Source of the DNA: Bacteroidota bacterium
Lineage (GTDB): Bacteria; Bacteroidota; Bacteroidia; Chitinophagales; CAIODY01
Direction of reading: 5' to 3'
Assembly: GCA_046051225.1 (NCBI GenBank)
Contig: JBJOOR010000017.1
Location: forward strand, 4,879 to 68,878
DNA length: 64,000 bases
A program made the translations under genes and the position numbers. The notes under the pieces are model-generated. The model saw only the letters and a program-made list of their open reading frames with translations. It was not told the origin of the DNA and did not search any database. Positions within the stretch are counted from its first letter, which is position 1. Every line of letters starts with the position of its first letter. Of the stretch, positions 3,318 through 41,596 are shown piece after piece.

Positions 3318-3331
3318 GAGTAATCAATTTT

Positions 3332-3351
3332 GGTACAACAAAGGTACAACA
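3332..3351. promoter_or_regulatory. perfect 9-bp direct repeat GGTACAACA x2 (11-bp period) between integrase start and tRNA fragment; candidate integrase arm-type or operator site
   Basis: GGTACAACA at 3332-3340 and 3343-3351, read directly. Function is inferred from position only. Confidence 0.3.
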
Positions 3352-3462
3352 TTTATGGTTTTTCGACAAATTGCACCGAAACAATTTTATACATAAAACC
3401 TATATTTATCAATACTTTCGGCATTCATGCATTCACATTAAACCATATTGATTCATTAAAAA

Positions 3463-3521
3463 CGGGACTTAAAATCCCGTGGGCCGAAACGCCCGTACGG
3501 GTTCAACTCCCGTCTCGAGTA
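3463..3521 (+). pseudogene. 3' partial tRNA-Leu(UAA): anticodon arm, long variable arm, T arm and 3' acceptor strand only (putative att site)
   Basis: The parts are:
- anticodon stem CGGGA/TCCCG with loop CTTAAAA (anticodon TAA)
- variable arm GGGCcgaaacGCCC
- T arm ACGGG-TTCAACT-CCCGT
- 3' acceptor strand CTCGAGT plus discriminator A
The complementary 5' acceptor strand (ACTCGAG) and a D arm are absent from the ~100 nt upstream. Confidence 0.75.
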
Positions 3522-8283: not shown

Positions 8284-8832
8284 ATGAAAAAAAGCATTCT
8301 AATTATTTCTGGCTCGGTATTGTTTTTATTTGCTTGTACATCGCAAAAAGATAAGTTAAAAGCAAAAATTTCAGCAAATGAAAAAATACTTTTGGCTGAT
8401 GAAATGGTTACACCCAAAGAAGATTCGATAGCATCGGTTTTAATTTCAGATTTTCAAACCTATGCTAAAGAAAATCCTGATGATTCATTAGCCGTTGAAT
8501 ATTTGTATAAAGCTGCCGAATATTCAAAAGGCATTTCAAAATTTAAACAAGCCGCCGATTTATACGGTATTATTTTCTCTAAATACCCTACTTCAAAAAA
8601 AGCTGCCAACAGCTTATTCTTTCAGGCTTTTACTTATCAAACCAATATTAATGACACCATAAAAGCTAAATTAATATTCAAAGATTTTATTGCCAAATAT
8701 CCTAACCATCCATTTGTAAAAGATGCTAAATTTTCATTACAGCAAATGGAAAACAAACTTTCGGATGATGAAATTGTAGCAGGCTTTATGAAAAAATTGG
8801 AAGAAAAAAACAAAACAAAATCGGCTAAATAA
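8284..8832 (+). CDS. TPR-like lipoprotein
   Basis: Lipoprotein signal LFLFAC at the N-terminus. The body is helical and TPR-like (LAVEYLYKAAEY..., ANSLFFQAFTYQ...). Confidence 0.6.
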   Translation: MKKSILIISGSVLFLFACTSQKDKLKAKISANEKILLADEMVTPKEDSIASVLISDFQTYAKENPDDSLAVEYLYKAAEYSKGISKFKQAADLYGIIFSKYPTSKKAANSLFFQAFTYQTNINDTIKAKLIFKDFIAKYPNHPFVKDAKFSLQQMENKLSDDEIVAGFMKKLEEKNKTKSAK

Positions 8833-8868: not shown

Positions 8869-9762
8869 ATGCAAAAAATTTCGGTAATAGGTGCAGGACA
8901 AATGGGTAATGGAATTGCTCATGTATTTGCGTTAAACAACTACCAAGTTACATTAATTGATATTTCGGAAGATGCCTTAAATAAAGCTTTGGCAACTATT
9001 GCCAAAAACAATGACCGCATGCTTACCAAAGGCACAATTACAGCCGAACAGGTTGAAAATTGCAAAAAAAACATTGCTACAAATACATCTATTGCTAATG
9101 GTGTAAGCCAAGCCGAATTAGTGGTAGAAGCGGCTACCGAAAATGTAGATTTAAAATTAAAAATATTTAAAGAAATAGATGCCAATGCGCCTGCAGGTTG
9201 CATTCTGGCATCTAACACTTCATCAATTTCCATTACTAAAATTACGGCTGTTACAAAACGCCCCGAATCTGTAATTGGAATGCATTTTATGAATCCTGTA
9301 CCATTAATGAAATTGGTAGAAATTATTGATGGTTATTCTACTTCAAAAGAAGTGAGTAATACCATTGTTGAGTTATCTAAAAAAATTGGTAAAACACCAG
9401 TAGTAGTAAATGATTATGCAGGATTTGTAAGCAACCGAATTTTAATGCCGATGATAAATGAAGCCATCGAAACTTTGTTTCAAGGCGTAGGTGGTGTTGC
9501 CGAAATTGATACCGTTATGAAATTGGGAATGGCTCATCCAATGGGGCCGTTGCAGTTGGCAGATTTCATCGGTTTAGATACTTGCTTGGCAATTTTAAGA
9601 GTATTGCATGATGGTTTCGGAAACCCTAAATATGCGCCTTGTCCGCTATTGGTAAACATGGTGGCTGCTGGTAAATATGGTGTAAAAAGTGGCGAAGGGT
9701 TTTATGTATATACGGCAGGCAGCAAGGATTTGGTGGTAAGTAATCAATTTACAAAAAAATAA
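8869..9762 (+). CDS. hbd: 3-hydroxybutyryl-CoA / 3-hydroxyacyl-CoA dehydrogenase
   Basis: N-terminal Rossmann motif [14 protein letters not shown]. The rest is conserved 3HCDH body ([36 protein letters not shown]). Confidence 0.9.
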
Positions 9763-22479: not shown

Positions 22480-22500
22480 AAATATCCAATATCCAACTTT
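22480..22500. repeat. left arm of a perfect 21-bp inverted repeat bracketing the four-helix-bundle gene
   Basis: AAATATCCAATATCCAACTTT. The exact reverse complement lies at 22925-22945. Confidence 0.95.
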
Positions 22501-22519
22501 AAATAATCAATAACCAAGT

Positions 22520-22894
22520 ATGGAAAAAAACAAAAAATATGATTTAGAAGAAAGACTTATAGATTTTGCAGTAAGAATAATTGATGTAGTAGAAGCACTA
22601 CCAAATACTAAAGCAGGAAATCATTTGGGTGGTCAGTTGGTTCGTTCAGGAACTTCGCCAGCATTAAATTATGGCGAAGCACAAAGTGCCGAATCGCAAA
22701 ATGATTTTATTCACAAAATGAAAATTAGTTTAAAAGAATTAAGAGAATCAAAAAATAATTTACGAATAATTCATCGCAAACCATTGATAAAACCAGTGTC
22801 AAAGTTAGAACCTATTTTAAATGAAATAAATGAATTAGTTGCCATTTTTGCTAAAAGTATTCAAACTGCTGAAAAAAATAAACCTAAAAAATAA
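22520..22894 (+). CDS. four-helix-bundle protein (23S rRNA intervening-sequence protein / Avd-like family)
   Basis: 124 aa. YDLEERLIDFAVRIIDVVEALP...AGNHLGGQLVRSGTSPALNYGEAQSAES..DFIHKMKISLKELRES is the family's characteristic sequence. Confidence 0.85.
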   Translation: MEKNKKYDLEERLIDFAVRIIDVVEALPNTKAGNHLGGQLVRSGTSPALNYGEAQSAESQNDFIHKMKISLKELRESKNNLRIIHRKPLIKPVSKLEPILNEINELVAIFAKSIQTAEKNKPKK

Positions 22895-22924
22895 ATTCAT
22901 TTTCAACTTCGATATTGGATATTG

Positions 22925-22945
22925 AAAGTTGGATATTGGATATTT
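22925..22945. repeat. right arm of the 21-bp inverted repeat (plus a partial extra copy GATATTGGATATT at 22911-22923)
   Basis: AAAGTTGGATATTGGATATTT. It ends 14 nt upstream of the parC ATG. Confidence 0.95.
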
Positions 22946-22958
22946 TCAAATAAGAATT

Positions 22959-25469
22959 ATGTCAGAAGAAATTATTCCCATTCAAAATAGCGGAAACGAA
23001 ATAGATACCGTAAGCGACTTATACAAAGGTTGGTTTATGGATTATGCATCGTATGTGATTTTAGAACGTGCAGTACCAGCCGTTCAAGATGGTTTAAAAC
23101 CTGTTCAACGCCGTATCCTTCATGCCATGAAAGAAATGGATGATGGCAGATTTAATAAAGTGGCAAACGTAATTGGGCAAACTATGCAATACCATCCGCA
23201 TGGCGATGCTTCTATTGGCGATGCCATGGTGGGCATTGGGCAAAAAGATTTGATGATTGAAACGCAAGGAAACTGGGGCGATGTACGTACTGGTGATGAT
23301 GCAGCAGCACCCAGATACATTGAAGCCAGATTATCAAAATTTGCTTTGGATGTGGCTTTCAACAATAAAACTACACAATGGCAACTAAGCTATGATGGTA
23401 GAAAAAATGAGCCAATAGTTTTGCCAATGAAGTTTCCTTTGTTGTTGGCGCAAGGCGTTGAAGGTATTGCTGTAGGCTTAGCTACAAAAGTTTTACCGCA
23501 TAATTTTGTTGAATTAATTCATGCATCTATTCATTATTTAAAAGGTAAAAAGTTTGAATTATTTCCCGATTTTCAAACAGGTGGAATGATTGATATTGCC
23601 AATTACAATGATGGTAAACGTGGCGGAAAAGTACGTGTTAGAGCCAAGATTGAAGAATTAGATAAAAAAACTTTGTTGATAAAAGATATTCCTTTTGGCA
23701 TCACCACATCCTCTTTGATGGATTCCATTGTAAAAGCAAATGATAATGGAAAAATTAAAATCAAAAAAATAGTTGATAATACTGCGGCTAATGTTGAAAT
23801 TGAAATTCAGCTTACACCAGGCATTTCGCCTGATGTTACTATTGATGCCTTGTATGCATTTACTGATTGCGAAGTTTCTATTTCGCCAAATGCTTGTGTA
23901 ATTGTAAATGATAAACCAGTATTCATAACGGTTTCAGAGTTATTAAAAATTTCTACCGACAACACAATGGATTTGTTGAAGAAAGAGTTAGAAATAAAAC
24001 TGAACGAATTAAATGAAAAATGGCATTACACTTCATTAGAAAAAATATTTTTTGAAGAAAAAATTTATAAAGAATTAGAAAAGAAACACGAAACGTGGGA
24101 TGCTGTAATTACAGCTATTGATAAGGCTTTTGCGCCTTTCAAAAAAAGTTTGAAACGAAATATTGAACGAGAAGATATTTTGAAACTGACTGAAAAACCC
24201 GTTCGAAGAATTTACAAATTAGATATTGATGAATTGATTGAACAAATCAATAATATTGAAAATGACATCAAACAAACACAATTTGATTTAGATCATTTAC
24301 GTGAATTTACCATTGCTTATTTTGAAAATTTATTAAAAAAATATGGCAAAGGCAGAGATAGAAAAACTGAAATTCGTCCGTTTGATAATATACAAGTATC
24401 GGCTGTAGCTATTGCCAATACTAAGTTGTATGTAAATTGGAATGAAGGATTTATTGGTAGCGGTTTGAAAAAAGATGAATTTTTGTTTGATTGTAGCGAT
24501 TTAGATAACATTGTTGTTTTCAGAAAAGATGGAAAAATGATAGTAACAAAAGTGAGCGACAAAACTTTTGTGGGCAAGGATATTATTCATGTTGAAATTT
24601 TTAGAAAAAATGACGAACGAACAACTTACAACCTAATTTATTTGGATGGAGCTTCGGGAATCAGCTATGTGAAAAGGTTTCAGGCTGGTGGCATAACAAG
24701 AGATAAAGAATATGATTTAACAAAAGGCGACCCAAAATCGAAAGTTTTATATTTTTCATCAAACCCAAATGGTGAAGCTGAAAAAGTGAATGTAATTTTA
24801 AAACCTACAGCCAGCGCAAGAATCAAGGTTTTTGATTTCGATTTTGCTGAATTAGAAATTAAAGGAAGAGGCAGCAATGGCAATCAACTCACGAAATATC
24901 CGGTGCATAAAATTTCGTTGAAAGAAAAAGGAAAATCAACTTTAAGCGGCATCAAAATTTATTACGATGAAGAAGTGGGCAGATTGAATACCGACGGCAA
25001 AGGCAAGCTGCTGGGCAACTTTGAGGGCGATGATAAAATAATTGCGTTGTATAAAGATGGTACTTATGAGTTGACGAATTATGAATTGACCAACCGTTTT
25101 GAAAGCAATCAAATTGTAACGGTTGAAAAATTTGATGCACAAAAACCAATTAGTTGCATTTATTACGATGCTGAAATGAAGTGCTACAATGCCAAACGGT
25201 TTTTGATTGAAACACAAACTTTGAACACCAAATTTCTATTTATAAAAGAAGGTGAGAAAAATGAATTGCTATTAGCCACCACACAAGCCAAGCCCATTGT
25301 GCGATTGAAAGCTGGTAAAAAGAAAAGCGAAGCGGTGGAATACAAAACAGACTTATCAATGGTGACAGAAGTGAAAGGCTGGAAAACTGTGGGCACAAAA
25401 ATCGGCACTGATATTTTAAGCGCTGAATTGTTTGTGGAAGAAGAACCGAAAACGGGGGAATTGTTTTAG
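22959..25469 (+). CDS. parC: DNA topoisomerase IV subunit A
   Basis: Start moved to MSEEIIPIQ, because the 22929 start lies inside the inverted repeat. Motifs seen: YASYVILERAVP, DGLKPVQRRIL, HPHGD and AAPRYIEARL (catalytic Tyr region). Confidence 0.9.
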   Translation: MSEEIIPIQNSGNEIDTVSDLYKGWFMDYASYVILERAVPAVQDGLKPVQRRILHAMKEMDDGRFNKVANVIGQTMQYHPHGDASIGDAMVGIGQKDLMIETQGNWGDVRTGDDAAAPRYIEARLSKFALDVAFNNKTTQWQLSYDGRKNEPIVLPMKFPLLLAQGVEGIAVGLATKVLPHNFVELIHASIHYLKGKKFELFPDFQTGGMIDIANYNDGKRGGKVRVRAKIEELDKKTLLIKDIPFGITTSSLMDSIVKANDNGKIKIKKIVDNTAANVEIEIQLTPGISPDVTIDALYAFTDCEVSISPNACVIVNDKPVFITVSELLKISTDNTMDLLKKELEIKLNELNEKWHYTSLEKIFFEEKIYKELEKKHETWDAVITAIDKAFAPFKKSLKRNIEREDILKLTEKPVRRIYKLDIDELIEQINNIENDIKQTQFDLDHLREFTIAYFENLLKKYGKGRDRKTEIRPFDNIQVSAVAIANTKLYVNWNEGFIGSGLKKDEFLFDCSDLDNIVVFRKDGKMIVTKVSDKTFVGKDIIHVEIFRKNDERTTYNLIYLDGASGISYVKRFQAGGITRDKEYDLTKGDPKSKVLYFSSNPNGEAEKVNVILKPTASARIKVFDFDFAELEIKGRGSNGNQLTKYPVHKISLKEKGKSTLSGIKIYYDEEVGRLNTDGKGKLLGNFEGDDKIIALYKDGTYELTNYELTNRFESNQIVTVEKFDAQKPISCIYYDAEMKCYNAKRFLIETQTLNTKFLFIKEGEKNELLLATTQAKPIVRLKAGKKKSEAVEYKTDLSMVTEVKGWKTVGTKIGTDILSAELFVEEEPKTGELF
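25396..25430 (+). repeat. direct repeat copy 1 (inside the parC 3' end)
   Basis: CAAAAATCGGCACTGATATTTTAAGCGCTGAATTG. 32/35 nt identical to 25958-25992. Confidence 0.85.
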
Positions 25470-25502: not shown

Positions 25503-25898
25503 ATGAAATCGTTTATTTTATCATTATTCTTTAAAGAAAAACCCGATGAATTAATTGGAAAATGGTTTCCGTATAATGATGGGGGCATGAGTATGATGTC
25601 AGGAATGGCAATTGAATTTAGAGATAATAGTAAAGGAATTCTTTATTCTTGGGGAAGTTCCAGCCCTGACCATGAGGAAGGTTATGATTTAGAAGAAGAA
25701 ATTTTATGGAAAAGAGTTTCCAAGAATCAAATAAAAATAAAAATGCTTGACCAAGAAAATTTTGATTTAGTTACATACAACATTGAGAAAAAATATGTTG
25801 GCTATTACAGTTTGACTTCGGGCTTTAATGGCAATGACGAATATTTTAAAAATTGTTTTTGGAAAGTTTTTAATCCGATTCAAAAACGAATTTCATAA
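25503..25898 (+). CDS. hypothetical small protein (GKW...GGMS family), cargo of the parC-3' insertion
   Basis: 131-aa ORF lying between the two copies of the parC-3' repeat. Confidence 0.55.
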   Translation: MKSFILSLFFKEKPDELIGKWFPYNDGGMSMMSGMAIEFRDNSKGILYSWGSSSPDHEEGYDLEEEILWKRVSKNQIKIKMLDQENFDLVTYNIEKKYVGYYSLTSGFNGNDEYFKNCFWKVFNPIQKRIS

Positions 25899-25957: not shown

Positions 25958-25992
25958 CAAAAATTGGCACTGATATTTTAAGCGCTAAATGG
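25958..25992 (+). repeat. direct repeat copy 2 (orphan parC 3' fragment with an alternative open tail)
   Basis: CAAAAATTGGCACTGATATTTTAAGCGCTAAATGG. In the parC-equivalent frame it reads KIGTDILSAKWNIKTILNRKANYFRLHFNQ*. Confidence 0.85.
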
Positions 25993-29977: not shown

Positions 29978-32473
29978 TTATGGTAAAAAAGTAATCTTTT
30001 TTTCTGCTTTATCATTGGCAGATAACACTTCAATTTTATCATAATCGCCCCTCTCCCATTTCGGAATCATATTATCATAATAAAAACTACCAGGGTTGCC
30101 ACTTTGCCCACCAGGATAAATGCCATAGGCTTCGGTTTTTGGCGTTAACGAAACCACCATACGCCATGATGGTCCATGAGTTGAGCTTACTGCATTAACC
30201 GAATTTTTTTCGCCATTGCCATTTACTTTTACACTAAAAGGTTCGATTTTTGCAAGGTTAGCAATGCTTGTAGCTCTGTAATCTGCCCATTTACTTTTGC
30301 CTTGTTTTTGAAGATTTTTAAATTGAAAATATGCCGTATCAAATGAAGTAACCAGCAAATCTTTCAACGTTTCTTTTTTATTTTTTGTATTGATGTTATC
30401 CCAAAAAATAAAATTAGAATCATTCTTCATAATATCAATTACAACATCTCTGTTTGGTTTTTCTAATTTGAATTTATTCTTACTAAATTCATCATTGAAA
30501 ACATCATCAACAAAGGCATCGTACCAGAGATTGTAAAATGTAGTATTTTCATTTCGAGAGGTATTTTGTTTATTCCAACCTTTTATTTCCATTGCAAAAT
30601 TTGCATCGTTGCATCTTTTCAAAAATAAATCAAAACCATCGAGTCCATCACAATTTGGATGCACAAGTACTTTACCATTTCTAAAATCTTTATCAATTAT
30701 TTCAGCAGAATAATTCGGAAAAAAAACGTAGCTCACTGCATCAATAAAATCCTCTACCCACAAATTATAATTATCATTTTGCAAAGCTTTCATGGATGAA
30801 ACCGAAGCCATTGTATCTTTTTCTAACATCGAATTAATTCTTAAACTTCTGTATTCATAATAATCGCCATAATAAAAATACGGATAAGCTTTATCGGTAG
30901 GTTGTTGATTGGCGCTGCTTACAAAGCCACGTTCGGGATTTAAAATATGTGGATTTTGTTCATGCGGAATAAATGAATGCCAAAAATTTCGGCTATCATT
31001 TCCTTCTAAAATAAATTTCCCTTCCTCCTCTTTCAACACAGGAAATCTGCCTTGTTCCCAAATAGCAATGTCATTATTTTTTGCAGCAAATACAAAATTT
31101 TGCCCTGGTGATTGAAAATGACTGATGGCTTCATCATATTCATTAAAATTATTGGCTCTATTTAAATTATAAATAGTAAGCATTTCGTTGCTTGGCAAAT
31201 GGCTAATCCAAGCCACCGATAAATTTTCTATTTTACCATTTAATGTATTTCGTTTATCGTATTGAACAGGACCAAATGCAGTGTAATAAACCGTATCCAA
31301 CACTTCGCCCTTACCACGAACTATTATTTTTTCAATTTTTTGTTCGGTTTTTTTCCATTGGTTATCACACCAATATTCTTGTTGCGATGCATCTTTAAAT
31401 TTGATATGATAGAAATTTTTTACATCACGTTCGGCATTGGTCATACTCCAAGCACATGAATCATTAAAGCCAATAATTACGCCTGGAGCGCCTGGCAATG
31501 AAGCACCACAAACGCTTTTACCATTAATAGTCAATTGCACTTCGTACCAAATTGAAGGCAGTGATAATCGTAAATGTGGGTCGCCACATAAAATTGGATA
31601 ACCTGTTTTTGTACGGCTACCGCTTACTGCCCAATTGTTGCTACCCACTGTGTAATCTGGCTTTGGTGGCACATTTGCAAAGCCTTCTTGCTGCGTTTCA
31701 TAATTTTTATAGGGTGTTGAATCGGGCTTAATAGCATCAAAATTATATTCTGTTCCTTTTGGGATGATAGGCGAAATATAATTTTGAAAATCGGGATACA
31801 ACTCATCAAACAACGATTTATCAAACAATTTTTTTGCATTGGTGTATGCAAAATCATTACAGTATCCACTTAAATCATCTGCCATTAATTTCAACAGCAA
31901 TGCGGTTTTCAGCGTTGTCCAATGTTCAGGTTTGTAATCCAAAAGTTTATATTCTAATGGTAATTTTTTACTATCTAAATTATCAATAAAAGCATTTACA
32001 CCATTGGCATAATTTTCAATCATCTGCTTAGTATTTTCATTTTTCAATATTTCTTGCAATGATTTTTCGGCACCATAAACCATTCCTTTTCGGCGTTGTG
32101 TTTTATCAAATTCAAAACCTTTTTCGCCCACAATTTCACTTACTCTACCAGCCGCTGCATGGGTTTGCAATTCCATTTGCCACAATCTATCTTTTGCCGT
32201 TAAATAGCCTTGTATGTAGTATAAATCATGTTCGTTTTCGGCAATAATATGCGGCACATTATTTTTATCAAACAATACATTGGCTTTAGCTTTTAAGCCA
32301 TTCAAATGTATTTCAGATGAAGCATTATCTTGCACAGATTCTGCATTTTGCCAACAACCCATAAATGGATTTAAAAACTTTGCAATTGGTGGCACTTCGC
32401 CCCAGCGATGATTCAATGCAAAACATAAAAATATAGTAATTGAAAAAGTAAGTATAAATTTAAACCAGCGCAT
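29978..32473 (-). CDS. penicillin acylase family Ntn-hydrolase (possible acyl-homoserine-lactone acylase)
   Basis: 831 aa with a signal/anchor sequence. The autoprocessing/nucleophile site is TVGSNNWAVSG, and the overall S45-family layout is present. Confidence 0.85.
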   Translation of the reverse strand: MRWFKFILTFSITIFLCFALNHRWGEVPPIAKFLNPFMGCWQNAESVQDNASSEIHLNGLKAKANVLFDKNNVPHIIAENEHDLYYIQGYLTAKDRLWQMELQTHAAAGRVSEIVGEKGFEFDKTQRRKGMVYGAEKSLQEILKNENTKQMIENYANGVNAFIDNLDSKKLPLEYKLLDYKPEHWTTLKTALLLKLMADDLSGYCNDFAYTNAKKLFDKSLFDELYPDFQNYISPIIPKGTEYNFDAIKPDSTPYKNYETQQEGFANVPPKPDYTVGSNNWAVSGSRTKTGYPILCGDPHLRLSLPSIWYEVQLTINGKSVCGASLPGAPGVIIGFNDSCAWSMTNAERDVKNFYHIKFKDASQQEYWCDNQWKKTEQKIEKIIVRGKGEVLDTVYYTAFGPVQYDKRNTLNGKIENLSVAWISHLPSNEMLTIYNLNRANNFNEYDEAISHFQSPGQNFVFAAKNNDIAIWEQGRFPVLKEEEGKFILEGNDSRNFWHSFIPHEQNPHILNPERGFVSSANQQPTDKAYPYFYYGDYYEYRSLRINSMLEKDTMASVSSMKALQNDNYNLWVEDFIDAVSYVFFPNYSAEIIDKDFRNGKVLVHPNCDGLDGFDLFLKRCNDANFAMEIKGWNKQNTSRNENTTFYNLWYDAFVDDVFNDEFSKNKFKLEKPNRDVVIDIMKNDSNFIFWDNINTKNKKETLKDLLVTSFDTAYFQFKNLQKQGKSKWADYRATSIANLAKIEPFSVKVNGNGEKNSVNAVSSTHGPSWRMVVSLTPKTEAYGIYPGGQSGNPGSFYYDNMIPKWERGDYDKIEVLSANDKAEKKITFLP

Positions 32474-32628
32474 AAAAATTTAATTATTGGTGATTGATTT
32501 TTCAAAGATATAGAATTTGAAAAAGTAAATGGGTTGAATTAATCAACAGAAAATAGTATTTAAACAATTTGTAAATATTGCCTAGTAATAAAAAAACTTT
32601 TTTAGTTTCGTTGCTTTCAAAATACATT

Positions 32629-34146
32629 ATGAATAATACATCTACACTTTCTGAAATTCAAAATTTCAAAGGCAAATACCCTAAACAACTTTGGTATTTA
32701 TTTTTTAGCGAAATGTGGGAACGGTTCTGTTTCTACGGCATGAGAGGTATGCTTGTTATTTTTATGGTTGATAAATTGGTTGGTTTAAATATGCCAAAAG
32801 ATGTAGCCAATTTGCAATACGGCGCTACACAAGCTTTTGTTTATGCATTTACATTTATAGGTGGTTTGTTTGCCGATAAAATTTTAGGCTTCAGAAAATC
32901 GCTTTTTTGGGGTGGCATTTTAATGATAATTGGTAGTTGTATTTTGGCTTTAAATCCGCATGAATATTTTTTCTTTGGTATAAGTTTTACCATTATTGGT
33001 ACAGGATTTTTCAAACCTAATATTTCTACCATGGTTGGTCAATTGTATAAAGATGGCGACCACCGAACCGATGCAGGTTTTTCATTATTTTATGCAGGCA
33101 TAAATTTAGGCGCTTTGTTAGGCGGTTATTTATGTATATCCATTGCACAAGGCGATGTGTTGGGGCAAGTAATACCCGAAAATTTAAGATGGAATGTAGC
33201 CTTTGGAATGGCAGCTATTGTAATGACAATTAGTTTAATTACTTTCATTTTTACACAACGTTCATTAGGCACAATTGGGCTATCGCCTATTGCAAATGAA
33301 AACACATCAAAAAAATGGTATGAATATGCAGTTTATGGCGGTTCATTATTAGTAATTCCTATCATTATGAAAATGGTTTCGGTAACGGAATACACTGATT
33401 ATTTTATGTTTACCATTGGGCCATGCACATTAATTTATCTATTTTATGAAATGAGAAATTTTACTAAAGTAGAACGTCAAAAGCTTTTAGCAGCCTTGGT
33501 ATTCATTATTTTCTCTATTTTCTTTTGGGCATTTTTCGAGCAAAGTGGAGGCTCGTTAAGTTTATTTGCCGATAATAATCTTAGCAACAATGTGTTAGGA
33601 ATGAAATTAAATCCAGCTGGCGTTAATAATTCAGCTAATTCATTTTTCGTAATCATATTTGCAGCATTGTTAGGCATAATTTGGCTTTGGCTTCATAAAA
33701 GAAAAATGGAACCTAATTCAATTGTTAAATTCGGGTTAGGATTTTTGTTTTTAGCCGCAGGTTTTTTTACCTTTTATTATACCAAACATTTAGCTAATGA
33801 AAACGGTATTACATCATTAAATATATTTACACTGGGTTGGTTTATTATCACCTTTGGCGAATTAAGTTTATCGCCAATTGGTATGTCGGTAATGACTAAA
33901 TTATCGCCACAAAAAACACAAGCCGTAATGATGGGGATGTGGTTTTTAGCAAGCGCTTACGGGCAATATTTTGCAGGCATTTTAGGAGCTAATATTGCTT
34001 CTGCATCTAAAGATTCAAGCAATTTGGCATCCTTAATAATTTATTGCGATGGTTACAAACAATTAGCAATTTATGCCGTTATATTGGGCATTGTAATGAT
34101 TGCTATTTCGCCATTAGTTAAGAAGTGGATGCATGGTGTGAAGTAG
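32629..34146 (+). CDS. proton-dependent oligopeptide transporter (POT/PTR2 family)
   Basis: Start moved to ATG MNNTST, because the 32578 start is TTG. The POT signature FSEMWERFCFYGMRGML is present with about 14 TM helices. Confidence 0.88.
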   Translation: MNNTSTLSEIQNFKGKYPKQLWYLFFSEMWERFCFYGMRGMLVIFMVDKLVGLNMPKDVANLQYGATQAFVYAFTFIGGLFADKILGFRKSLFWGGILMIIGSCILALNPHEYFFFGISFTIIGTGFFKPNISTMVGQLYKDGDHRTDAGFSLFYAGINLGALLGGYLCISIAQGDVLGQVIPENLRWNVAFGMAAIVMTISLITFIFTQRSLGTIGLSPIANENTSKKWYEYAVYGGSLLVIPIIMKMVSVTEYTDYFMFTIGPCTLIYLFYEMRNFTKVERQKLLAALVFIIFSIFFWAFFEQSGGSLSLFADNNLSNNVLGMKLNPAGVNNSANSFFVIIFAALLGIIWLWLHKRKMEPNSIVKFGLGFLFLAAGFFTFYYTKHLANENGITSLNIFTLGWFIITFGELSLSPIGMSVMTKLSPQKTQAVMMGMWFLASAYGQYFAGILGANIASASKDSSNLASLIIYCDGYKQLAIYAVILGIVMIAISPLVKKWMHGVK

Positions 34147-34199
34147 GGAAAAAGTTATTAGTTATTCCGAATAGAAGAAAGTAAACACAAAAAATATAA

Positions 34200-35339
34200 A
34201 TGAAAAATGTAGTTCGAATTTTATTGCTAGTTGCAATATTCAATATTCAGTATTCAGTATTCAATAATACGTTTGCCCAAACAGATAAAACTGCTGGAGA
34301 GATAGATGCAGCAAGCGCTCAAAAAAGTTTTGTGCATGGCAACGAGTTAATGCATAAAGAAAATTACAAAGGCGCAATTGAAGCTTATAATGATGCCGTT
34401 GATTTAGATAGCAGCAAAGCCAACTATCAATTTCAATTGGGCTTGGCTCATTATTTTGCTAAAAATTATAAAACTACTATCACCGTTTTACAAACTTTAT
34501 TAAAGAAATTTCCTGCTGATGAGCGCTATTATTCATTGCTTGGAAGTTGTTATTCGGAAACAAGAAGCGATAAAAAAGCATACTCTATTTTAGAAGAAGG
34601 ATTAAAAAAATATCCCAATAGTGGTGGTATATATAGTCAATTAGGTAAAATTGAATACGACCATGAAAATTTTAATCTTGCCATTCAACATTGGGAAAAT
34701 GGTGTTCAATCCGACCCTATGTATCCATCTAATTATTACTATTTATCATTGGCTTATGGCAGCACAACCGAAAAAATGTGGGGCATTATTTATGGCGAAA
34801 TATTTATCAATCTTGAAAGCAATACCGAACGAACTTACGAAATAATGAAACGTATTTACGATTTTTATCAGCAATCTATTTTTATAAAATCGCCTAAAAA
34901 TAAATTTGCCTTATTTACTGATGAACTAACCCGATTAACTGATGTAGAAGCCCGTGATACCATGCTTTTGCATAAAAATTTTGCTATTGCATTTAATGAT
35001 ATTTCGCAACGAAGTTTAATTGTATTTAAAGATAAATTTAATACCGAAAAATTAATTGAATTCAGAAAAAGAAGTATTGATTTATGGTATAATAAAAATC
35101 GACCGCTTGATTTTCCTAACCCATTATTTGATTACCAACGTGAAATAATTAGCGAAGGATATTTTGAATGCTACAATCACTGGCTGTTAAGCAAAGGCGA
35201 CCCAAAAACATTTAACGATTGGATGGAATTAAACAAAAAAAAGTATGATGAATTTATAAAATGGTTTTTAAAACATCCATTCGAGGTTTATCAAAAAAAT
35301 TGTATCACTCGTAAAAAATATATTTTAGGCTTACAATAA
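34200..35339 (+). CDS. secreted TPR-repeat protein
   Basis: Signal peptide, then TPR-like repeats (YKGAIEAYNDAVDLD, YYSLLGSCYSE, NLAIQHWENGVQSDP). Confidence 0.65.
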   Translation: MKNVVRILLLVAIFNIQYSVFNNTFAQTDKTAGEIDAASAQKSFVHGNELMHKENYKGAIEAYNDAVDLDSSKANYQFQLGLAHYFAKNYKTTITVLQTLLKKFPADERYYSLLGSCYSETRSDKKAYSILEEGLKKYPNSGGIYSQLGKIEYDHENFNLAIQHWENGVQSDPMYPSNYYYLSLAYGSTTEKMWGIIYGEIFINLESNTERTYEIMKRIYDFYQQSIFIKSPKNKFALFTDELTRLTDVEARDTMLLHKNFAIAFNDISQRSLIVFKDKFNTEKLIEFRKRSIDLWYNKNRPLDFPNPLFDYQREIISEGYFECYNHWLLSKGDPKTFNDWMELNKKKYDEFIKWFLKHPFEVYQKNCITRKKYILGLQ

Positions 35340-35411
35340 TTTATCGAAAAGGTTTGCTGAAACCGAAACCAAATAAGGTTTCATCTGTTATCTTCGCATC
35401 ATTAAATAATT

Positions 35412-37283
35412 ATGGCAAAAATTTCGATAAACGTAGCAAAAGGTAAGATTGATACTCCTGCCGATCATGAAATAATTTTAGGAATTGATTTAGGAACTAC
35501 TAACAGTTTAGTTGCATACATTGATGATTGTAATCGTCAGCCCGTTTGTTTAGCAAAAAATGGCAAGCACACTTTGATTCCATCCATCATTCATTTTGAA
35601 GAAAACGGAAACATTTTAGTAGGCGATGAAGCCAAAGCAAAAATTGTTGAATCGCCTGAACGTACTGTGTTTTCCGTAAAAAGATTAATGGGGAAATCTT
35701 TTGGAGATGTAAAAGATTTTAAAAACTTTTTCAGTTATGAAGTGATTGATGACAACACAGAAAGTTTGGTGAAAATAAAAATCGGCAATCAATTTTATTC
35801 GCCCATTGAATTATCAAGTTTGATTTTGAAAGAGTTGAAAGCCACAGCAGAAGCGGCTTTGAATAAAGTGGTTACAAAATGTGTCATCACCGTTCCTGCT
35901 TATTTTAATGACACACAACGCCAAGCAACTAAAGATGCTGGTAAGTTAGCAGGGTTGGATGTTTTAAGAATTGTCAACGAACCGACGGCTGCAAGCCTTG
36001 CCTATGGATTAGGTTTGAAGAAAGATGAAGAAAAGAAAATTGCTGTGTATGATTTGGGCGGTGGCACATTTGATATTTCCATCTTGCATATTCAAAGCGG
36101 AATATTTGAAGTGTTGAGCACAAATGGCGATACATTTTTAGGTGGAGATGATTTAGATAAAGCCATTGTAGATTATTGGTTAGAAAATGTGGATGGCTTG
36201 AAAGCTGCTTACAGCAGTAGTTCTAACACACAACAAGCCATTCGATTATTTGCCGAGCAATCGAAAAAAAGTTTGGCCTGTACCAATTCAACGCATCATC
36301 AACTCGATAATTTCAAACTGGATTTAACCATTGAAAAATTAGAAGAGTTGATAAATCCTTTTGTGGAAAAAACTTTGCAATGCTGTGCAAAAGCATTGTC
36401 GGATGCAGGTTTGAAGAAAGAAGAAATTGAAGCAGTTATCATGGTTGGTGGTAGCACTCGTTCGCCTTTTGTAAAACAAAAAGTGAGTGAATTTTTCAAT
36501 CAACCTGTGAATGATTCATTAAATCCAGATGAAGTGGTTGCCTTGGGAGCCGCTATCCAAGCCGATGTACTGGCTGGTAATCAAAAAGATATTTTGTTAT
36601 TAGATATTACGCCGCTGTCATTGGGCATCGAAACAATGGGCGGATTGATGGATGTAATTATTCCACGAAATTCAAAAATTCCAACTCGTGCTGGGCGAAC
36701 ATATACCACTTCAAAAGATGGACAATCACAAATAAAAATTTCTGTTTTTCAAGGCGAACGTGATTTAGTGAAAGATAATCGTAAGCTGTCAGAGTTTGTA
36801 TTATCAGGCATTCCGGGTATGCCAGCAGGTTTTCCGAAAGTTGAAATTCAATTCACAATAAATGCTGATGGAATTTTAATGGTAAAAGCAAAAGAGCTGC
36901 GAAGCGGCGTTGAACAAAGCATTGAAGTGAAACCTCAATATGGTTTAACAGATGAGCAAGTAGAAAAAATGTTGATTGAATCTATCGAAAATGCAAAAGA
37001 TGATATGGCTGTAAGAGGTTTGCAGGAAGCCAAAACTGAAGCCGAACAAATGATTTTGGTAACAGAAAAATTCTTGCAAAAAAATGAATCGTTATTAACC
37101 AATGAAGAAATTTCTACCACAAAAAATTTATTGGTTGAATTGAAAAATTCTTTACAACAAACGGAAAGAAATATCATTCACGGGCGCATGGATGAACTCA
37201 ATCAATTCACCCGTCCATTTGCTGAACGTGTGATGGATATTGCGATTGCAGATGCGATGAAAGGGAAGAAGATACTTGAGTAA
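35412..37283 (+). CDS. hscA: HscA-like Hsp70 chaperone
   Basis: 623 aa, colinear with E. coli HscA as I recall it: [78 protein letters not shown]. Confidence 0.8.
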
Positions 37284-37305
37284 TTGGCTAATGTGCTGAT
37301 GTGCT
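37206..37305 (+). repeat. 100-bp direct repeat copy A (functional hscA 3' end plus 22 nt beyond the stop)
   Basis: Aligns base-for-base with 38462-38561 (offset 1256) at about 86% identity by hand count. Confidence 0.9.
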
Positions 37306-37370
37306 AATGAAGAAAAAGTTGCTTGTTACTTGTTGTTGGTTTTGAGTAAATGCAAATCATAATCGAGGCT

Positions 37371-37432
37371 TCATTCAGCAGGAAACTATTTTGAAGTGTG
37401 TACAAAAGTTGAAATAGATTCCTCCTGAATGA
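37371..37432 (+). other. long imperfect stem-loop (21-nt arms, 2 mismatches, 20-nt loop) between hscA and the cassette ORF
   Basis: The left arm TCATTCAGCAGGAAACTATTT pairs with AAATAGATTCCTCCTGAATGA. No T-tract follows. Confidence 0.75.
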
Positions 37433-37488
37433 CCAATACAAAACTTTAATTTTAATTCCCTATTTTTATTGCACCAAAAATTCATTTG

Positions 37489-38460
37489 ATGCAAAAAGCA
37501 TTTTTACTCTTTGTTGTTTTTTCGGTTTCATTTTGTTTGAAATCGGTGGGGCAAAGCAATATCATCAATATCACTTTCGATGACAACTCTTACAAGAAAT
37601 ATGTGGTGATTGATACCACTTCATCATTTCGTTGGCAAGTATGCAAAACCAATAAAGCTGGCTTTGGTAGCGGCACTTCAACAAAAGTAATTGTAACAGA
37701 TTCATCAAAATCTTATCCTAAAAATGATACGATGAGATTTATTGTGAAGTTTGATTCATTAATGTATTTAAATGGAAGTTTAGTGCAAGGAGTTATCGAG
37801 CATATGTATTTCAATTTTGCTTTTAGGATGAACACAGATTCCTCAAAAGATTTTTGCCAATTAGATTTCAGTTATGACAATGGTAATAGTTGGTTCTTAG
37901 CAAATCAATACTCATGCGTATCAAGCTTCAGTTTTAATAATAATTGGTCTGATAGCGCCTTGATTTCTGGGAAATTAATCAATTGGAATATTGCTTCGTT
38001 TTTTTTAAACCCATGTGGCTGCTTCCCAGCTAGAATAAAATCTGGAAGCTGGCCTCAGATTTATGCTACCCAAAATTCTATTTGGTTTCGGTTCTCTTTA
38101 CTCACTGATTCTACATATGATAGTTTACCAGGTTGTGAAATTGATAGCATTTCATTTCAAAGAATTTGGTGGCAATATTGTCCAACAGGTATTGAAAATA
38201 TTTCTTCTCAAATCCCCATCACCATTTTCCCCAATCCATCTTCTTCTAATTTTAATTTAACAACCGATGAAACTATTGCTGCAAAAGGATTTGGTGTAAG
38301 TATTACAAACTTATTAGGTGAAAATATTTTTTCGAAAAATGACATTCATCAAGCCAATTTCAAAATAGACACACAACAATTCCCTGCTGGAATTTATTTC
38401 TTAAAATCACATTGCAGTGGTTATGCCGATGCGAATGAAAAGTTGGTGGTAGAAAAATAA
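37489..38460 (+). CDS. secreted protein of unknown function with T9SS C-terminal sorting domain (cassette cargo)
   Basis: Signal peptide MQKAFLLFVVFSVSFCLKSVGQ. C-terminus ITIFPNPSSSNFNLT...FPAGIYFLKSHCSGYADANEKLVVEK. Confidence 0.8.
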   Translation: MQKAFLLFVVFSVSFCLKSVGQSNIINITFDDNSYKKYVVIDTTSSFRWQVCKTNKAGFGSGTSTKVIVTDSSKSYPKNDTMRFIVKFDSLMYLNGSLVQGVIEHMYFNFAFRMNTDSSKDFCQLDFSYDNGNSWFLANQYSCVSSFSFNNNWSDSALISGKLINWNIASFFLNPCGCFPARIKSGSWPQIYATQNSIWFRFSLLTDSTYDSLPGCEIDSISFQRIWWQYCPTGIENISSQIPITIFPNPSSSNFNLTTDETIAAKGFGVSITNLLGENIFSKNDIHQANFKIDTQQFPAGIYFLKSHCSGYADANEKLVVEK

Positions 38461-38461
38461 T

Positions 38462-38561
38462 TTCACTCGACCATTTGCTGAACGTGCGATGGATATTGCG
38501 ATTGCGGATGCGATGAAAGGGAAAAAGATTTTGGAATAATTAGCCAATTTGATGATATGCT
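38462..38561 (+). repeat. 100-bp direct repeat copy B (orphan hscA 3' end abutting and overlapping the osmC-family 3' end)
   Basis: Encodes [25 protein letters not shown], which is not in frame with the preceding ORF. The last 22 nt are antisense to the final codons of the 38540-39049 gene. Confidence 0.9.
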
Positions 38562-39049
38562 GATTCGATGTTTACACCTTTTACTAAAGTTTGATACACC
38601 ACACAATATCTTTCGGTAAGTTTTGCAAGCGATTGCATTTGTTCGTCTGTTGCATCTGCTTTAAGAAGAAAAGAAAGACGAATAGCCGTAAACCCTACAG
38701 GCACTTCTTTCGATACACCCAATGTGCCTCTAAAATCTAAATCGCCTTCGGCTGTTATACTACCTTCTTTTATTTCAATACCGATAGCTGTTGCTACGGC
38801 TTGCAGTGTAACACCTGCACAAGCCACTAAAGCCTCCAACAACATATCGCCACTACAAGCCAACAAGCCTGTGCCTCCTGTAGCACTGTGTAAGCCAGCT
38901 TCTACTATGGCTTTGCCCGTATCAATTTTGCATGATATACCTTCGCCAACTTTTCCGTTTGCTTTTAATGTGATAATGGCTGCATTAGGTTGATGACGGT
39001 ATTTTTCTTTTAGCGGTGCTTGTAAAGTTTTTAATTCTTCTGCATTCAT
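38540..39049 (-). CDS. OsmC/Ohr-family peroxiredoxin-like protein
   Basis: 169 aa. The GGTGLLACSGDMLLEALVACAG block with paired Cys and the overall OsmC-like pattern. Confidence 0.8.
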   Translation of the reverse strand: MNAEELKTLQAPLKEKYRHQPNAAIITLKANGKVGEGISCKIDTGKAIVEAGLHSATGGTGLLACSGDMLLEALVACAGVTLQAVATAIGIEIKEGSITAEGDLDFRGTLGVSKEVPVGFTAIRLSFLLKADATDEQMQSLAKLTERYCVVYQTLVKGVNIESAYHQIG

Positions 39050-39209: not shown

Positions 39210-39338
39210 TCATGGACGATTGGCTACATAGATAACAAAAACTGATATTATTTTTTTCATTTTTTTACTTCTTTTTTGCTGTGCAAATAAAGCCGTAGCA
39301 AAAAGCAAAAAAAGAAAAGATAGAAATGTGTTTTTCAT
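39210..39338 (-). pseudogene. truncated third copy of the beta-barrel gene (signal peptide only, then unrelated sequence and stop)
   Basis: MKNTFLSFLFLLFATALFAQQK is identical to the N-terminus of ORF 39663-40373. It then diverges and stops after 42 aa. Confidence 0.7.
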
Positions 39339-39400
39339 GATGTTTGGTTTTTTAAATAAATGATTTGGGTATTACTAATAAAATCATCTCTTCTATCCAT
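39274..39400. repeat. junction repeat copy I (~127 bp)
   Basis: Near-identical to 40309-40436 and 41295-41421. Covers the 3' end of the small gene, the junction, and the signal-peptide coding part of the barrel gene. Confidence 0.9.
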
Positions 39401-39651
39401 TATTCTTTTAGAATAAATCAAAAAATCGTTTAAATATTTTGTATCATTAGTAGCTTCAAACATATTGATGTAGGATTGTAAAAACTTAGTACCAATAGAA
39501 TGAATAAAAAAAACACATTGCTTCTAAATGAAGCTCCCTGCCCTCCATAACTTTGTAACTCTATTGAATCAAATTTATTGCGATACGTTTGTGAAAAAGC
39601 AGTTGAGCAAACTATACCCAATAAAAATATTGCTATTAAAATTTGTTTCAT
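39335..39651 (-). pseudogene. small secreted protein gene (paralog of 40407-40685) split by a frameshift at an A8/T8 tract
   Basis: The N-terminal frame (39651 down to the tract) matches the paralog through GGQGASFRSN. The match continues in the +2 frame (KFLQSYINMFEATNDTKYLNDFLIYSKRIMDRRDDF). The tract is at 39506-39513. Confidence 0.7.
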
Positions 39652-39662
39652 AATTGTAGTTT

Positions 39663-40373
39663 TTAGAATGAAATAATTAAGCCTGTTTTATAGTATATAT
39701 AAAGCGCTGGAGACCAATCTGGAACTGGTTTTGAATAGCTAGTTTCAATAATTAATGGGACTGAAATGGAAAAGTGTTTATAAGTTCTTTTTATACTTAG
39801 TCCTATGTTTTCAAAATCTCTAAAATCATCTGTGAATTTTAAAAGTTGATAATAATCTTTATTAATAAATTTCAAGTAGCTTGAAGAAATTAGATTTTTT
39901 TCAAACCCAACATGAATTGTTAATTCATTTCTTTTTATTTTGAATAATCTGTACCCTAAACCAATAATTAAATTTCCTCTATAATCAGCATCTTCAATTT
40001 TCAAGTTACTTGTAGCTGCATGTGGTATATGGTTATATTCAAAACCATCTGCATAATATTGCCGCAATGAGTACCTATACGAAATACCAAAAGCCGAAAA
40101 AAATCTACCATAAGCTAAATTAACATTTGCAAAAAAATCATGTCCAATTAGGGTAGAATAATCTCTATAAGGTCTGATGTAGGGGGTCCAGTCTGGTTCA
40201 AATTTTTTAATATCGATTAAATACAAATTTACATTTTCTTTTACAAGCAAAGCCCCAAAAGAGAATTCGATTTTTAGCTTATCTTTATGTTTTATATCAA
40301 TACTATCCTTTTGCTGTGCAAATAAAGCCGTAGCAAAAAGCAAAAAAAGAAAAGATAGAAATGTGTTTTTCAT
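39663..40373 (-). CDS. putative outer-membrane beta-barrel protein, array copy 2
   Basis: 236 aa with a signal peptide, alternating hydrophobic pattern, aromatic-rich composition and a C-terminal Phe (GLIISF). Confidence 0.6.
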   Translation of the reverse strand: MKNTFLSFLFLLFATALFAQQKDSIDIKHKDKLKIEFSFGALLVKENVNLYLIDIKKFEPDWTPYIRPYRDYSTLIGHDFFANVNLAYGRFFSAFGISYRYSLRQYYADGFEYNHIPHAATSNLKIEDADYRGNLIIGLGYRLFKIKRNELTIHVGFEKNLISSSYLKFINKDYYQLLKFTDDFRDFENIGLSIKRTYKHFSISVPLIIETSYSKPVPDWSPALYIYYKTGLIISF

Positions 40374-40436
40374 GATGTTTGGTTTTTTAAATAAATGATT
40401 TGGGCTTTAATAATAAAAATCATCTCTTCTATCCAT
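40309..40436. repeat. junction repeat copy II
   Basis: See copy I. The offset from copy I is 1035 bp. Confidence 0.9.
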
Positions 40437-40685
40437 CACTCTTTTCGAATGTATTAAAAATTCATTCAAATATTTTACGTCATTCGTTGCTTCATACATG
40501 TTTAAATAGGCGTTCATCGTTTTTGCTTCATACTCCTTAATTTGCGAAGTAAAATTTGAAGACCAACTGTATGCACCACCATTAAAATGTTGACCTCGGT
40601 CAAGGTTGTCAAATTGTTGACGAAAAGATTGTGCATCTAGATTAATTGAAACAATTAATAAAATTACAAAAAGTATATTTTTCAT
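40407..40685 (-). CDS. small secreted protein, array copy 1
   Basis: 92 aa with signal peptide MKNILFVILLIVSINLDAQ. Paralogous to the frameshifted gene at 39335-39651. Confidence 0.6.
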   Translation of the reverse strand: MKNILFVILLIVSINLDAQSFRQQFDNLDRGQHFNGGAYSWSSNFTSQIKEYEAKTMNAYLNMYEATNDVKYLNEFLIHSKRVMDRRDDFYY

Positions 40686-40696
40686 AACTATTGAAT

Positions 40697-41359
40697 TTAA
40701 TGTAAATATGCGATAAAACCTAGATTAAAAATAAAGTATTGTAGTTTGTAATTATAGGAATCGTAGGCTAAAAATTCAGTCAATCCAACCGTTTTAACAA
40801 TATTTAATTGAGCAATTATATTTTTAAAAAGTTGGTATTGTACAAATCCACCGAAAACAATTGATTGTTCATTTTCTTTCCAAAAGAAGTGTTTGTTAGA
40901 TTGGCTTGATATGTTTAACCACAAATTATCTTCATAGGAATATTGCCACATTTCAGAATACTTGTATCCTAGTTTAGTGTATAAAAAAAATCTTTTAAAA
41001 TGATACGTTTTAATGTTTAAGCCGCCTTGATATGCATTCATATTAAAATACAAATGGTTGTTTACATTTTTTCTATAGAAATCTTCTTGTTCTAAAGTTT
41101 CTCGATTGTAGGCTACATAAATATTAAGTCTTTTGTAAATTTTATAACTTATTTCACATCCATAATTGTAATGAAATACCCCTTTACTTTTACTAAGATC
41201 GAATACTCCAATATTAGGTTTCATGTGTGTTAATCCTCCATTAATATTGATAGAAAATTTATCCTTTCTGTTTTTTAAGGATGCAGAGTCAGTTTTTTGC
41301 TGTGCAAATAAAGCCGAAGCAAAAAGCAAAAAAAGAAAAGATAGAAATGTGTGTTTCAT
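40697..41359 (-). CDS. putative outer-membrane beta-barrel protein, array copy 1
   Basis: 220 aa. Its signal peptide MKHTFLSFLFLLFASALFAQQK is almost identical to copy 2, but the mature part is strongly diverged. Confidence 0.6.
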   Translation of the reverse strand: MKHTFLSFLFLLFASALFAQQKTDSASLKNRKDKFSININGGLTHMKPNIGVFDLSKSKGVFHYNYGCEISYKIYKRLNIYVAYNRETLEQEDFYRKNVNNHLYFNMNAYQGGLNIKTYHFKRFFLYTKLGYKYSEMWQYSYEDNLWLNISSQSNKHFFWKENEQSIVFGGFVQYQLFKNIIAQLNIVKTVGLTEFLAYDSYNYKLQYFIFNLGFIAYLH

Positions 41360-41421
41360 AAGGTTTGGTTTTTTAAATAAATGATTTGGGCATTACTAAT
41401 AAAATCATCTCTTCTGTCCAT
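41295..41421. repeat. junction repeat copy III (includes an orphan 3' remnant of the small gene upstream of 41359)
   Basis: See copy I. The offset from copy II is 986 bp. The remnant reads ...VMDRRDDFISNAQIIYLKNQTL* and overlaps the barrel ATG as ATGA. Confidence 0.9.
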
Positions 41422-41596
41422 TACCCATTACTCTTGATATTCTATCAAGTTTTTTAACTCTATTTGTTTACTAGTCTTTACAAATAACCATATTGCGAAC
41501 ATACAAATCTGTTCATTAAATTTTTTTTTTAAATCAAGCGTATGTATCCAAACTAGGCTATGGCAGAATTTTTTATTATTAGCAGCATCAAATTAT

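Follow-up and report, generated by a model that had tools for sequence, protein, structure and literature searches.

Two diverged copies of the hscA 3' end flank a neighbouring T9SS-tail protein gene in a Bacteroidota genome: a probable recombination scar

The window analysed here, a stretch of 64,000 nucleotides from contig JBJOOR010000017.1 of a Bacteroidota bacterium, contains the 3' end of hscA twice, once as the working end of the intact gene and once as an orphan that lies 1256 bp downstream, on the far side of a single gene encoding a protein with a type IX secretion system (T9SS) sorting tail (henceforth the cargo). We regard the locus as a recombination scar at a rearrangement-prone hscA-cargo pair, which gives no good ground for assuming a new self-mobile cassette. 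The account that we favour, with a confidence just under even, is that homologous recombination produced a hetero-allelic partial tandem duplication here.

The gene hscA (35412..37283, + strand; Pfam HSP70, 4.7e-189) encodes an intact Hsp70-family Fe-S chaperone, the homologues of which are named HscA in their sources. A repeat search and a BLAST of the window against itself found one direct repeat at this locus, 37200-37308 matching 38456-38564 over 109 nt with 84.4% identity and an offset of 1256 (E 2.5e-27); the preliminary description of this DNA had reported the same offset, with an extent of 100 bp and an identity of about 86% that are corrected here. Copy A (37200..37308, + strand) comprises the last 27 codons of the working hscA end, to 37283, and its 3' flank, while copy B (38456..38564, + strand) comprises an orphan hscA end of 27 codons and a stop, to 38539, followed by a degenerate octamer array. 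The homology of copy B to hscA begins at about 38456, where AAATAATTTCAC corresponds to ..N N F T of the hscA alleles of the L002/L004 type (L numbers denote hscA loci of related genomes), so that 27 hscA codons are covered and the cargo stop TAA (38458-38460) is included. The orphan end as such had been recognized before; the start then given to it, 25 codons before the hscA stop and 1 nt past the stop of the open reading frame (ORF), lies too far to the right. Translation of copy B was considered and rejected: an in-frame TAG stands 4 codons upstream and no start precedes an internal Met, which leaves a 16-aa peptide at most. From hscA through osmC, two independent Logan assemblies show 0 mismatches to the window, which itself lies in JGI contig Ga0451748_0000027; with three assemblies identical in structure, the repeat is not an assembly artefact.

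The two copies differ in a manner expected of coding sequence. In a base-by-base comparison of the 78 coding nucleotides (37206-37283 against 38462-38539) we counted nine differences, eight of them synonymous, in agreement with the earlier count by hand. Rather than being evenly spread, the differences are biased toward third codon positions, which hold seven of them; one Leu pair, CTT/TTG, differs at positions 1 and 3 of the same codon. The sole non-synonymous difference, GTG to GCG (V to A), is private to copy B. The probability of at most one non-synonymous change in nine under neutral drift of copy B was calculated with two models, and is 0.0014 under a mixed model with neutral drift in B and constraint on A, and 2e-5 when every change is placed at random in B, which rules out chance as the source of the synonymous bias. 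Between A and B the synonymous divergence per site (pS) is 0.44 and the non-synonymous divergence (pN) 0.034, and working hscA genes of different species of the clade are separated by a pS of 0.42-0.48; this match upholds the earlier proposal that the orphan was once a working hscA end. Eleven real hscA ends encode nearly the same peptide, with 0-13 mostly synonymous base differences among them, and copy B is 8-12 bases away from each.

A scan of genomes for HscA found proteins 95-96% identical in amino acid sequence to that of the window in L001-L003, 89% identical in L004, and 80% identical in L005 and L006. The cargo has six homologues (P0001-P0006; P0003 is a short form) in 5.8 billion proteins, which lie downstream of hscA wherever the neighbourhood is readable, in at least five related lineages, most of them without the repeat. 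The order hscA-orf175-DUF1275-cargo518/519-Mo-oxidoreductase occurs in L001, L038, L048 and L052-L057, the order hscA-cargo512-rhomboid in the gene tables of the P0005 contigs, and the order hscA-hairpin-cargo in L003 and L050. None of the loci that were read past the cargo has a second hscA end; L003 and L050 are uninformative in this respect since they end inside or just after the cargo start. The hscA-cargo pair is kept though the upstream gene varies (TPR, MerR, EGF-like, MgtE), and each lineage has a right neighbour of its own (osmC, a 181-aa gene, Mo-oxidoreductase, rhomboid, DUF559). The persistence of this adjacency across lineages shows the cargo to be a native neighbour of hscA and not an imported cassette. 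The foreign single-gene cassette of the preliminary description is contradicted by cargo orthologues that stand next to hscA without flanking repeats, an outcome named beforehand as speaking against it. Through rearrangements the hscA-cargo pair acts as a unit, the outer genes varying on both sides. A metagenome scan with the cargo protein gave no match, and a metagenome scan with a DNA pattern of the hscA end gave only a distant relative, 68% identical. In L005 an ORF past the hscA stop (3220-3500) may be a transposase fragment, a guess made from the sequence alone.

The cargo gene (37489..38460, + strand) encodes 323 aa from its ATG, a TTG start at 37486 (324 aa) being also possible. Its product matches Por_Secre_tail (PF18962) over residues 247-321 of 324 with an E value of 1.1e-11, so the identification of the ORF between the copies as a T9SS-tail protein is sound. 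The N-terminus, MQKAFLLFVVFSVSFCLKSVGQ, was counted as a signal peptide and, together with the C-terminal sorting domain, predicts secretion. Relative to orthologues of 512-519 aa, the window cargo is a short form that lacks about 195 aa. A dN/dS of 0.15 in comparison with the cargo of L004 indicates purifying selection and a working gene. The region upstream of it, with the promoter and the 5' end (37451..37488, + strand), is conserved, with blastn matches at L003 3084-3217, L004 8069 onward and L050 2063-2143. The cargo is the only ORF between the repeats, where neither integrase nor excisionase nor relics of integration or transfer genes were found; as noted earlier, there is no recombinase in the unit, and none lies beside it. 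The repeat search found no inverted repeats at the unit boundaries, and plasmid and phage collections gave no match to the unit. Between copy A and the cargo lies a stem-loop (37372..37431, + strand), unique in the window, with 20-nt arms (37372-37391 and 37412-37431) that contain 2 mismatches and enclose a 20-nt loop; the stem-loop reported earlier is thus real, its arms being 20 nt with mismatches in place of the 21 bp then given. This hairpin has no T-run, and relatives hold unrelated hairpins (termed S1 and S2) at the same position. A promoter and terminator scan of the locus gave no score above those of shuffled sequences, the fold of the intergenic region is unexceptional (z -1.3), and no Rfam family reaches its gathering score anywhere in the window.

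The right end of the unit is an illegitimate joint (38455..38461, + strand) that connects the last codon of the cargo to hscA codon -27 at a microhomology, (A)AATAA, of 4-6 nt. The native cargo end, as found in L001 and L038, which have no copy B, is GAG/GGG CGA TAA AAAAATT; the joint reads GAA AAA TAA TTTCAC in the window and in L004, and hscA of L002/L004 reads TTA AAT AAT TTY AC. The native last codon of the cargo has therefore been replaced, and its TAA stop is supplied by the hscA-derived piece. The sequence GAAAAATAA|TTTCAC across the joint is identical in the window and L004. A joint of this kind would be expected where a tandem duplication, or a circle cut out of such a duplication, is closed; it looks like a one-off illegitimate join and no designed att site. 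Of the integration that had been put forward, whether of the Campbell type or site-specific, the recombination through hscA-end homology explains these data best, and the site-specific variant finds no support in them; the right joint cuts into the last codon of the cargo.

L004 (JBEEMV010000067.1), an independent metagenome-assembled genome (MAG) from another study, has the same architecture; it and the window are the two genomes known to carry the structure. The left flanks of the two correspond over 6.6 kb, with an identity of 91-97% in the clonal parts, and L004 continues with the hscA end and its array, a different hairpin (S2), a short-form cargo that has the same internal deletion as the window cargo, the joint, and an orphan hscA end (9084-9166). 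An in-frame TGA at 8669-8671 of the L004 cargo denotes either a pseudogene or an error of the MAG consensus. To the right of copy B in L004 there is no osmC; hairpin S1 follows, and B with S1 is 91% identical to the real hscA end with the terminator of L003. Past S1 comes a 57-nt remnant of the cargo promoter with its start codon (ATG changed to ATC). Copy B and its flank in L004 are a truncated second [hscA end-terminator-promoter-cargo] unit of an allele type unlike that of the first, and have the appearance of an [hscA end-terminator-cargo] unit of the resident that was displaced. The end type GATACTTGAR with the array is common to the A copies of the window and L004 (the end type also occurs in L006), and the end type GATTTTRGAA is common to both B copies and frequent among single-copy genomes. 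Aligned over window 30746-38545 and L004 1340-9170, the two genomes form an identity mosaic, with 91-97% in 30746-32694 and 34334-35683, 61-83% over a POT transporter gene (32695-34333), and 55-57% with indels in hscA 36134-36404; the divergent stretches look like recombination imports on a clonal frame of about 95% identity.

Between the window and L004 the synonymous divergence dS is 0.63 for hscA and 0.66 for the cargo, and 0.26 and 0.34 for the left-flanking TPR and amidase genes, respectively. Expressed as pS, hscA and cargo reach 0.42-0.44, about twice the 0.22-0.27 of the left-flanking genes. This doubled divergence implies that the hscA-cargo block has a recombination history of its own. 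The two B copies differ from each other at 9 of 78 nt, five codons being changed synonymously and two non-synonymously; against neutral drift the probability of this pattern is 6e-10 at the pS of the cargo and 0.014 at the lowest pS of the flank. B has accordingly not drifted since the shared joint was formed. The private non-synonymous changes, V to A in the window and R to N in L004, fall in the first nine codons of B, and the last 16 codons differ by synonymous changes only. Most of copy B therefore very probably belonged to a working hscA until recently in each lineage, which would fit two residents that were close relatives, given the dS of 0.26-0.34 in the flanking genes. Concerted evolution was rejected as the sole cause of its conservation, the A-B distances being 9 and 7 within genomes and 10 and 9 across them.

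The 25 nt or so past the hscA stop consist of three 8-nt units of the pattern G[CA][TC][AG]ATNN, mostly GCTAATNN. The array reads GCTAATGT GCTGATGT GCTAAT in copy A (37287..37308, + strand) and GCCAATTT GATGATAT GCTGAT in copy B (38543..38564, + strand), where the opposite strand codes for the C-terminus of OsmC (ESAYHQIG*). Arrays of 3-4 units directly follow the hscA stop in L004 (7899-7920), L006 (8035-8064) and L051 (2384-2413), and one unit follows it in L050 (about 1973-1984); in these four loci osmC is not nearby. As the array was found nowhere else in the window or in 51 fetched loci than beside hscA stops, it is most probably a 3' element linked to hscA, and it may serve hscA as a regulatory or binding element. 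The OsmC-family gene of the window (38540..39049, - strand; Pfam OsmC, 6e-18) has its stop directly beside the orphan hscA stop, as had been described. The further claim that the duplicated unit is the junction of hscA and osmC is better replaced by an hscA end with its own array, given that the array follows hscA in loci free of osmC.

DNA similarity of the window osmC to its relatives ends at 38574, its last 10 codons differ from those of the closest orthologues, and the osmC genes of relatives have no octamer array; the tail of the window protein, KGV-NIESAYHQIG, fits the family pattern. In relatives the OsmC orthologues (85-88% identical) stand elsewhere, either next to pgm in tail-to-tail orientation and 3 kb away from dnaX, or in yet another setting, and one of these orthologues shares its genome with L001. 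Within 6 kb of hscA no OsmC was found in any of 34 genome loci, nor was an empty site with hscA and osmC in convergent orientation. That the flank past the stop is a decayed osmC tail is contradicted by its octamer periodicity and by its presence after hscA without osmC, and is favoured by the family-like tail of OsmC. The bases used by both genes may stem either from an ancestral convergent overlap of hscA and osmC or from a later fusion of osmC to the array.

The repeat and its bias by codon position, the joint common to both genomes, their unlike right flanks and the native place of the cargo are observed. On these we base the following course of events, the order of which we infer, as we do transfer between lineages and a dependence on RecA. 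The T9SS-tail gene is the usual downstream neighbour of hscA in the clade. In an ancestor, the last codon of the cargo would have been joined illegitimately to hscA codon -27 at the 4-6 nt microhomology, either in a tandem duplication or in an excised circle, and the recombination machinery of the host would later have inserted DNA bearing this joint at the hscA end of a resident genome. The inserted unit would be [hscA end - octamer array - hairpin - promoter - cargo - joint - start of hscA end]. It could have entered as a circle, through one crossover of the Campbell type, or as linear DNA, through two crossovers; in the latter case the left arm would be the hscA body, and the duplicated end of hscA would be a portable right arm. 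The incoming copy A would complete hscA, and the former end of the resident gene, copy B, would be moved 1256 bp downstream, keeping the resident's flank, which would be osmC in the window and the L003-type terminator with the cargo-promoter remnant in L004. No dedicated recombinase would be required. Such an insertion explains why both genomes have the same joint, why two allele types occur, why B resembles coding sequence and why no recombinase lies in or beside the unit; why the right flanks are unlike one another past the hscA stop and similar to native downstream regions of hscA; and why synonymous divergence in the hscA-cargo block is double that of the left flank.

Several observations weigh against insertion by recombination. 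Neither an empty site nor a free circle was found, close relatives being few in public collections, and with two carriers only, independent insertions and one old event are inseparable. Old orphan DNA is expected in the left part of B, but the two genomes differ there at only 5 of 30 nt, so that crossovers near the joint or later gene conversion have to be assumed, and two central sites (alignment columns 39 and 60) agree within each genome and not between corresponding copies, a hint of gene conversion between A and B. Moreover, the tail of the window OsmC is encoded antisense to the array and looks genuine all the same. We consider it doubtful that the 1.26-kb unit is a recombinase-free mobile cassette with the 3' end of hscA, a conserved gene of the essential type, as its portable homology arm. 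If it were, host RecA alone could place the unit after hscA in every related genome, regardless of the genes that come next, and each insertion would restore hscA and leave a fresh orphan end, which would explain a coding-like orphan beside long-diverged cassettes.

The serious rival to this insertion, which has most of its steps in common with it and to which we assign a lower, though still substantial, probability, is a tandem duplication in place: the segment from hscA codon -27 to the cargo would have been duplicated once in the common ancestor of the window and L004 and inherited vertically, the second unit being mostly deleted, with copy B and its right flank later exchanged for sequence of working hscA ends through allelic replacement or gene conversion, and a transferable cassette would never have existed. 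A joint that links unit end to unit start at a microhomology is what such a history predicts, and the second terminator and cargo-promoter remnant that L004 keeps past B, the common left flank at 91-97% identity, the recombination mosaic of the region, and the within-genome conversion suggested by columns 39 and 60 all fit it. It accords less well with units that differ in allele type in both genomes, with hscA and cargo genes twice as diverged as their flanking genes, and with a copy B that has no sign of long neutral drift; in the window it also needs an extra rearrangement, through which the second array copy was fused in frame to osmC codon 160 with a family-like tail.

An improbable alternative is a decayed site-specific element in the hscA 3' end with a replacement end, comparable to a cis-mobilizable element (CIME), that lost its integrase and could be moved in trans, e.g. 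by the enzyme encoded at 2088-3317. The layout is indeed reminiscent of attL and attR, in that the direct repeats contain a conserved gene's 3' end and the element-side copy restores this gene; the joint is identical in two genomes with unlike right flanks, an integrase of the Bacteroidota type is encoded 34 kb away, and CIMEs are defined by attL and attR being kept while the integration genes are lost (PMC5704250). The fact that the cargo is a native hscA neighbour in the clade, the position of the right boundary inside the last cargo codon, where it supplies the stop and leaves no non-coding arm for an attP, the lack of integration or transfer relics and of plasmid or phage matches, and the tRNA-like fragment which that integrase adjoins as its own speak against such an element. 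Still far less probable is a long target-site duplication or replication slippage at the insertion of the cargo, followed by neutral decay of the unused halves. An insert flanked by direct repeats, and an array that is more degenerate, as an osmC frame, after A, would agree with it; the synonymous bias (P 0.0014 to 2e-5), an A-B synonymous divergence at the between-species level and the native position of the cargo do not, and the preliminary description was right in setting local slippage aside, slippage or long target-site duplication with drift being rejected by the codon-position statistics. A chimeric join of the hscA ends of two strains might be suspected in a window that comes from a metagenome contig, and we regard it as negligible in view of the three identical assemblies, the mere 84% identity of the copies, which would not confuse an assembler, and the same architecture in the independent MAG.

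In mode of action, Campbell-type insertion-duplication and the minimal mobile elements of Neisseria come closest to the locus among known systems. The former, chiefly a laboratory tool, similarly gives an insert flanked by a duplicated homologous segment, of which one copy completes the gene and the other is orphaned, and host recombination suffices for it; here, however, the "vector" would be a natural 1.26-kb unit from the gene's own downstream neighbour and no circle was seen. A tandem duplication is matched by the end-to-start joint and not by a second full copy of the unit, the second unit being limited to the hscA end and array in the window and to the hscA end, hairpin and promoter remnant in L004. 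In transformation, alternative pairing of a partly repeated donor fragment leads to tandem duplications by unequal crossing-over, the copies of which are free to diverge (Johnston et al. 2013, PMC3784515). The origin of the unit resembles the tandem duplication of these merodiploids, but theirs span 100-900 kb between insertion sequence (IS) copies and are unstable, whereas the present one is 1.26 kb long, hetero-allelic and kept in two diverged genomes.

The minimal mobile elements of Neisseria (Saunders & Snyder 2002, cited in PMC1797815; PMC3787668) are, as far as these accounts describe them, alternative small cassettes at one chromosomal site that are swapped by DNA uptake and homologous recombination in conserved flanks, with no recombinase encoded by the element (PMC1797815; PMC3787668). 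The likeness to our locus would lie in the exchange of cassettes by recombination without a recombinase of their own. As described there, the elements have two different conserved flanking genes and no duplication; at our locus hscA, on the left, is the one conserved flank, the neighbour on the right varies by lineage, and the right-hand homology would be a duplicated piece of hscA carried with the unit.

CIMEs and other integrative elements that target gene 3' ends (PMC5704250) share with the locus an element copy that restores the gene, an orphaned native end and the absence of an integrase inside. Direct repeats of a gene 3' end are present here, whereas an integrase or its relics, decayed mobility genes and foreign content are not: the content is that of the native neighbour, one boundary lies in coding sequence, and in place of the short identical core of CIMEs there is 84% identity over about 100 nt. 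A transposon, an IS or a miniature inverted-repeat transposable element would have terminal inverted repeats and a short duplication; the former are absent, and the latter is 109 nt long and 84% identical. An integron cassette is likewise not matched, the only hairpin being upstream of the ORF and the sole recombinase among the Pfam-scanned ORFs being the Arm-DNA-bind_5-type integrase at 2088-3317. What would possibly be new is the use of a short duplicate of a conserved gene's end as a portable homology arm, a role that we hold unlikely.

If the reading of the locus as a product of homologous recombination is right, a short duplicated gene end makes a neighbouring gene addable, removable and movable by ordinary homologous recombination, which would be a simple route to variation in the content of surface and secreted protein genes in Bacteroidota without mobile-element machinery. 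The codon-position pattern of an orphan gene end can serve to date how recently it was in use, and annotators should check in relatives whether a gene is native before naming repeat-flanked single genes "integrated cassettes".

Elsewhere in the window, a parallel to the hscA case had been claimed at parC (22929-25469). A duplicate does exist there: a 33-nt piece from inside the 3' region of parC (25396-25428) recurs at 25958-25990, after a small ORF (25503-25898) without a Pfam hit. With its 2 mismatches, one synonymous and one non-synonymous, and stopping short of the parC stop, this internal fragment is a much weaker case. The integrase encoded at 2088-3317 (- strand) is a tyrosine integrase of the Bacteroidota type with Arm-DNA-bind_5, SAM_5 and Phage_integrase domains, and 180 nt upstream of it lies a 17-nt fragment (3497-3513, + strand) like the 3' end of a tRNA or tmRNA (Rfam tmRNA positions 347-363, E 0.012); ARAGORN found no intact tRNA in the window. 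Between osmC and dnaX, the region 39272-41424 contains tandem signal-peptide ORFs (39663-40373, 40697-41359 and fragments) with repeats of 131-202 nt that are 89-95% identical, and both Logan assemblies stop inside it, at 39303. Between a parE-like gene and parC, an ORF of 124 aa (22520-22894) for a "23S rRNA intervening sequence protein" stands between the arms of a 40-nt inverted repeat (22480-22519 and 22906-22945, 87.5%), and the whole (22480-22945) looks like a small inserted module.

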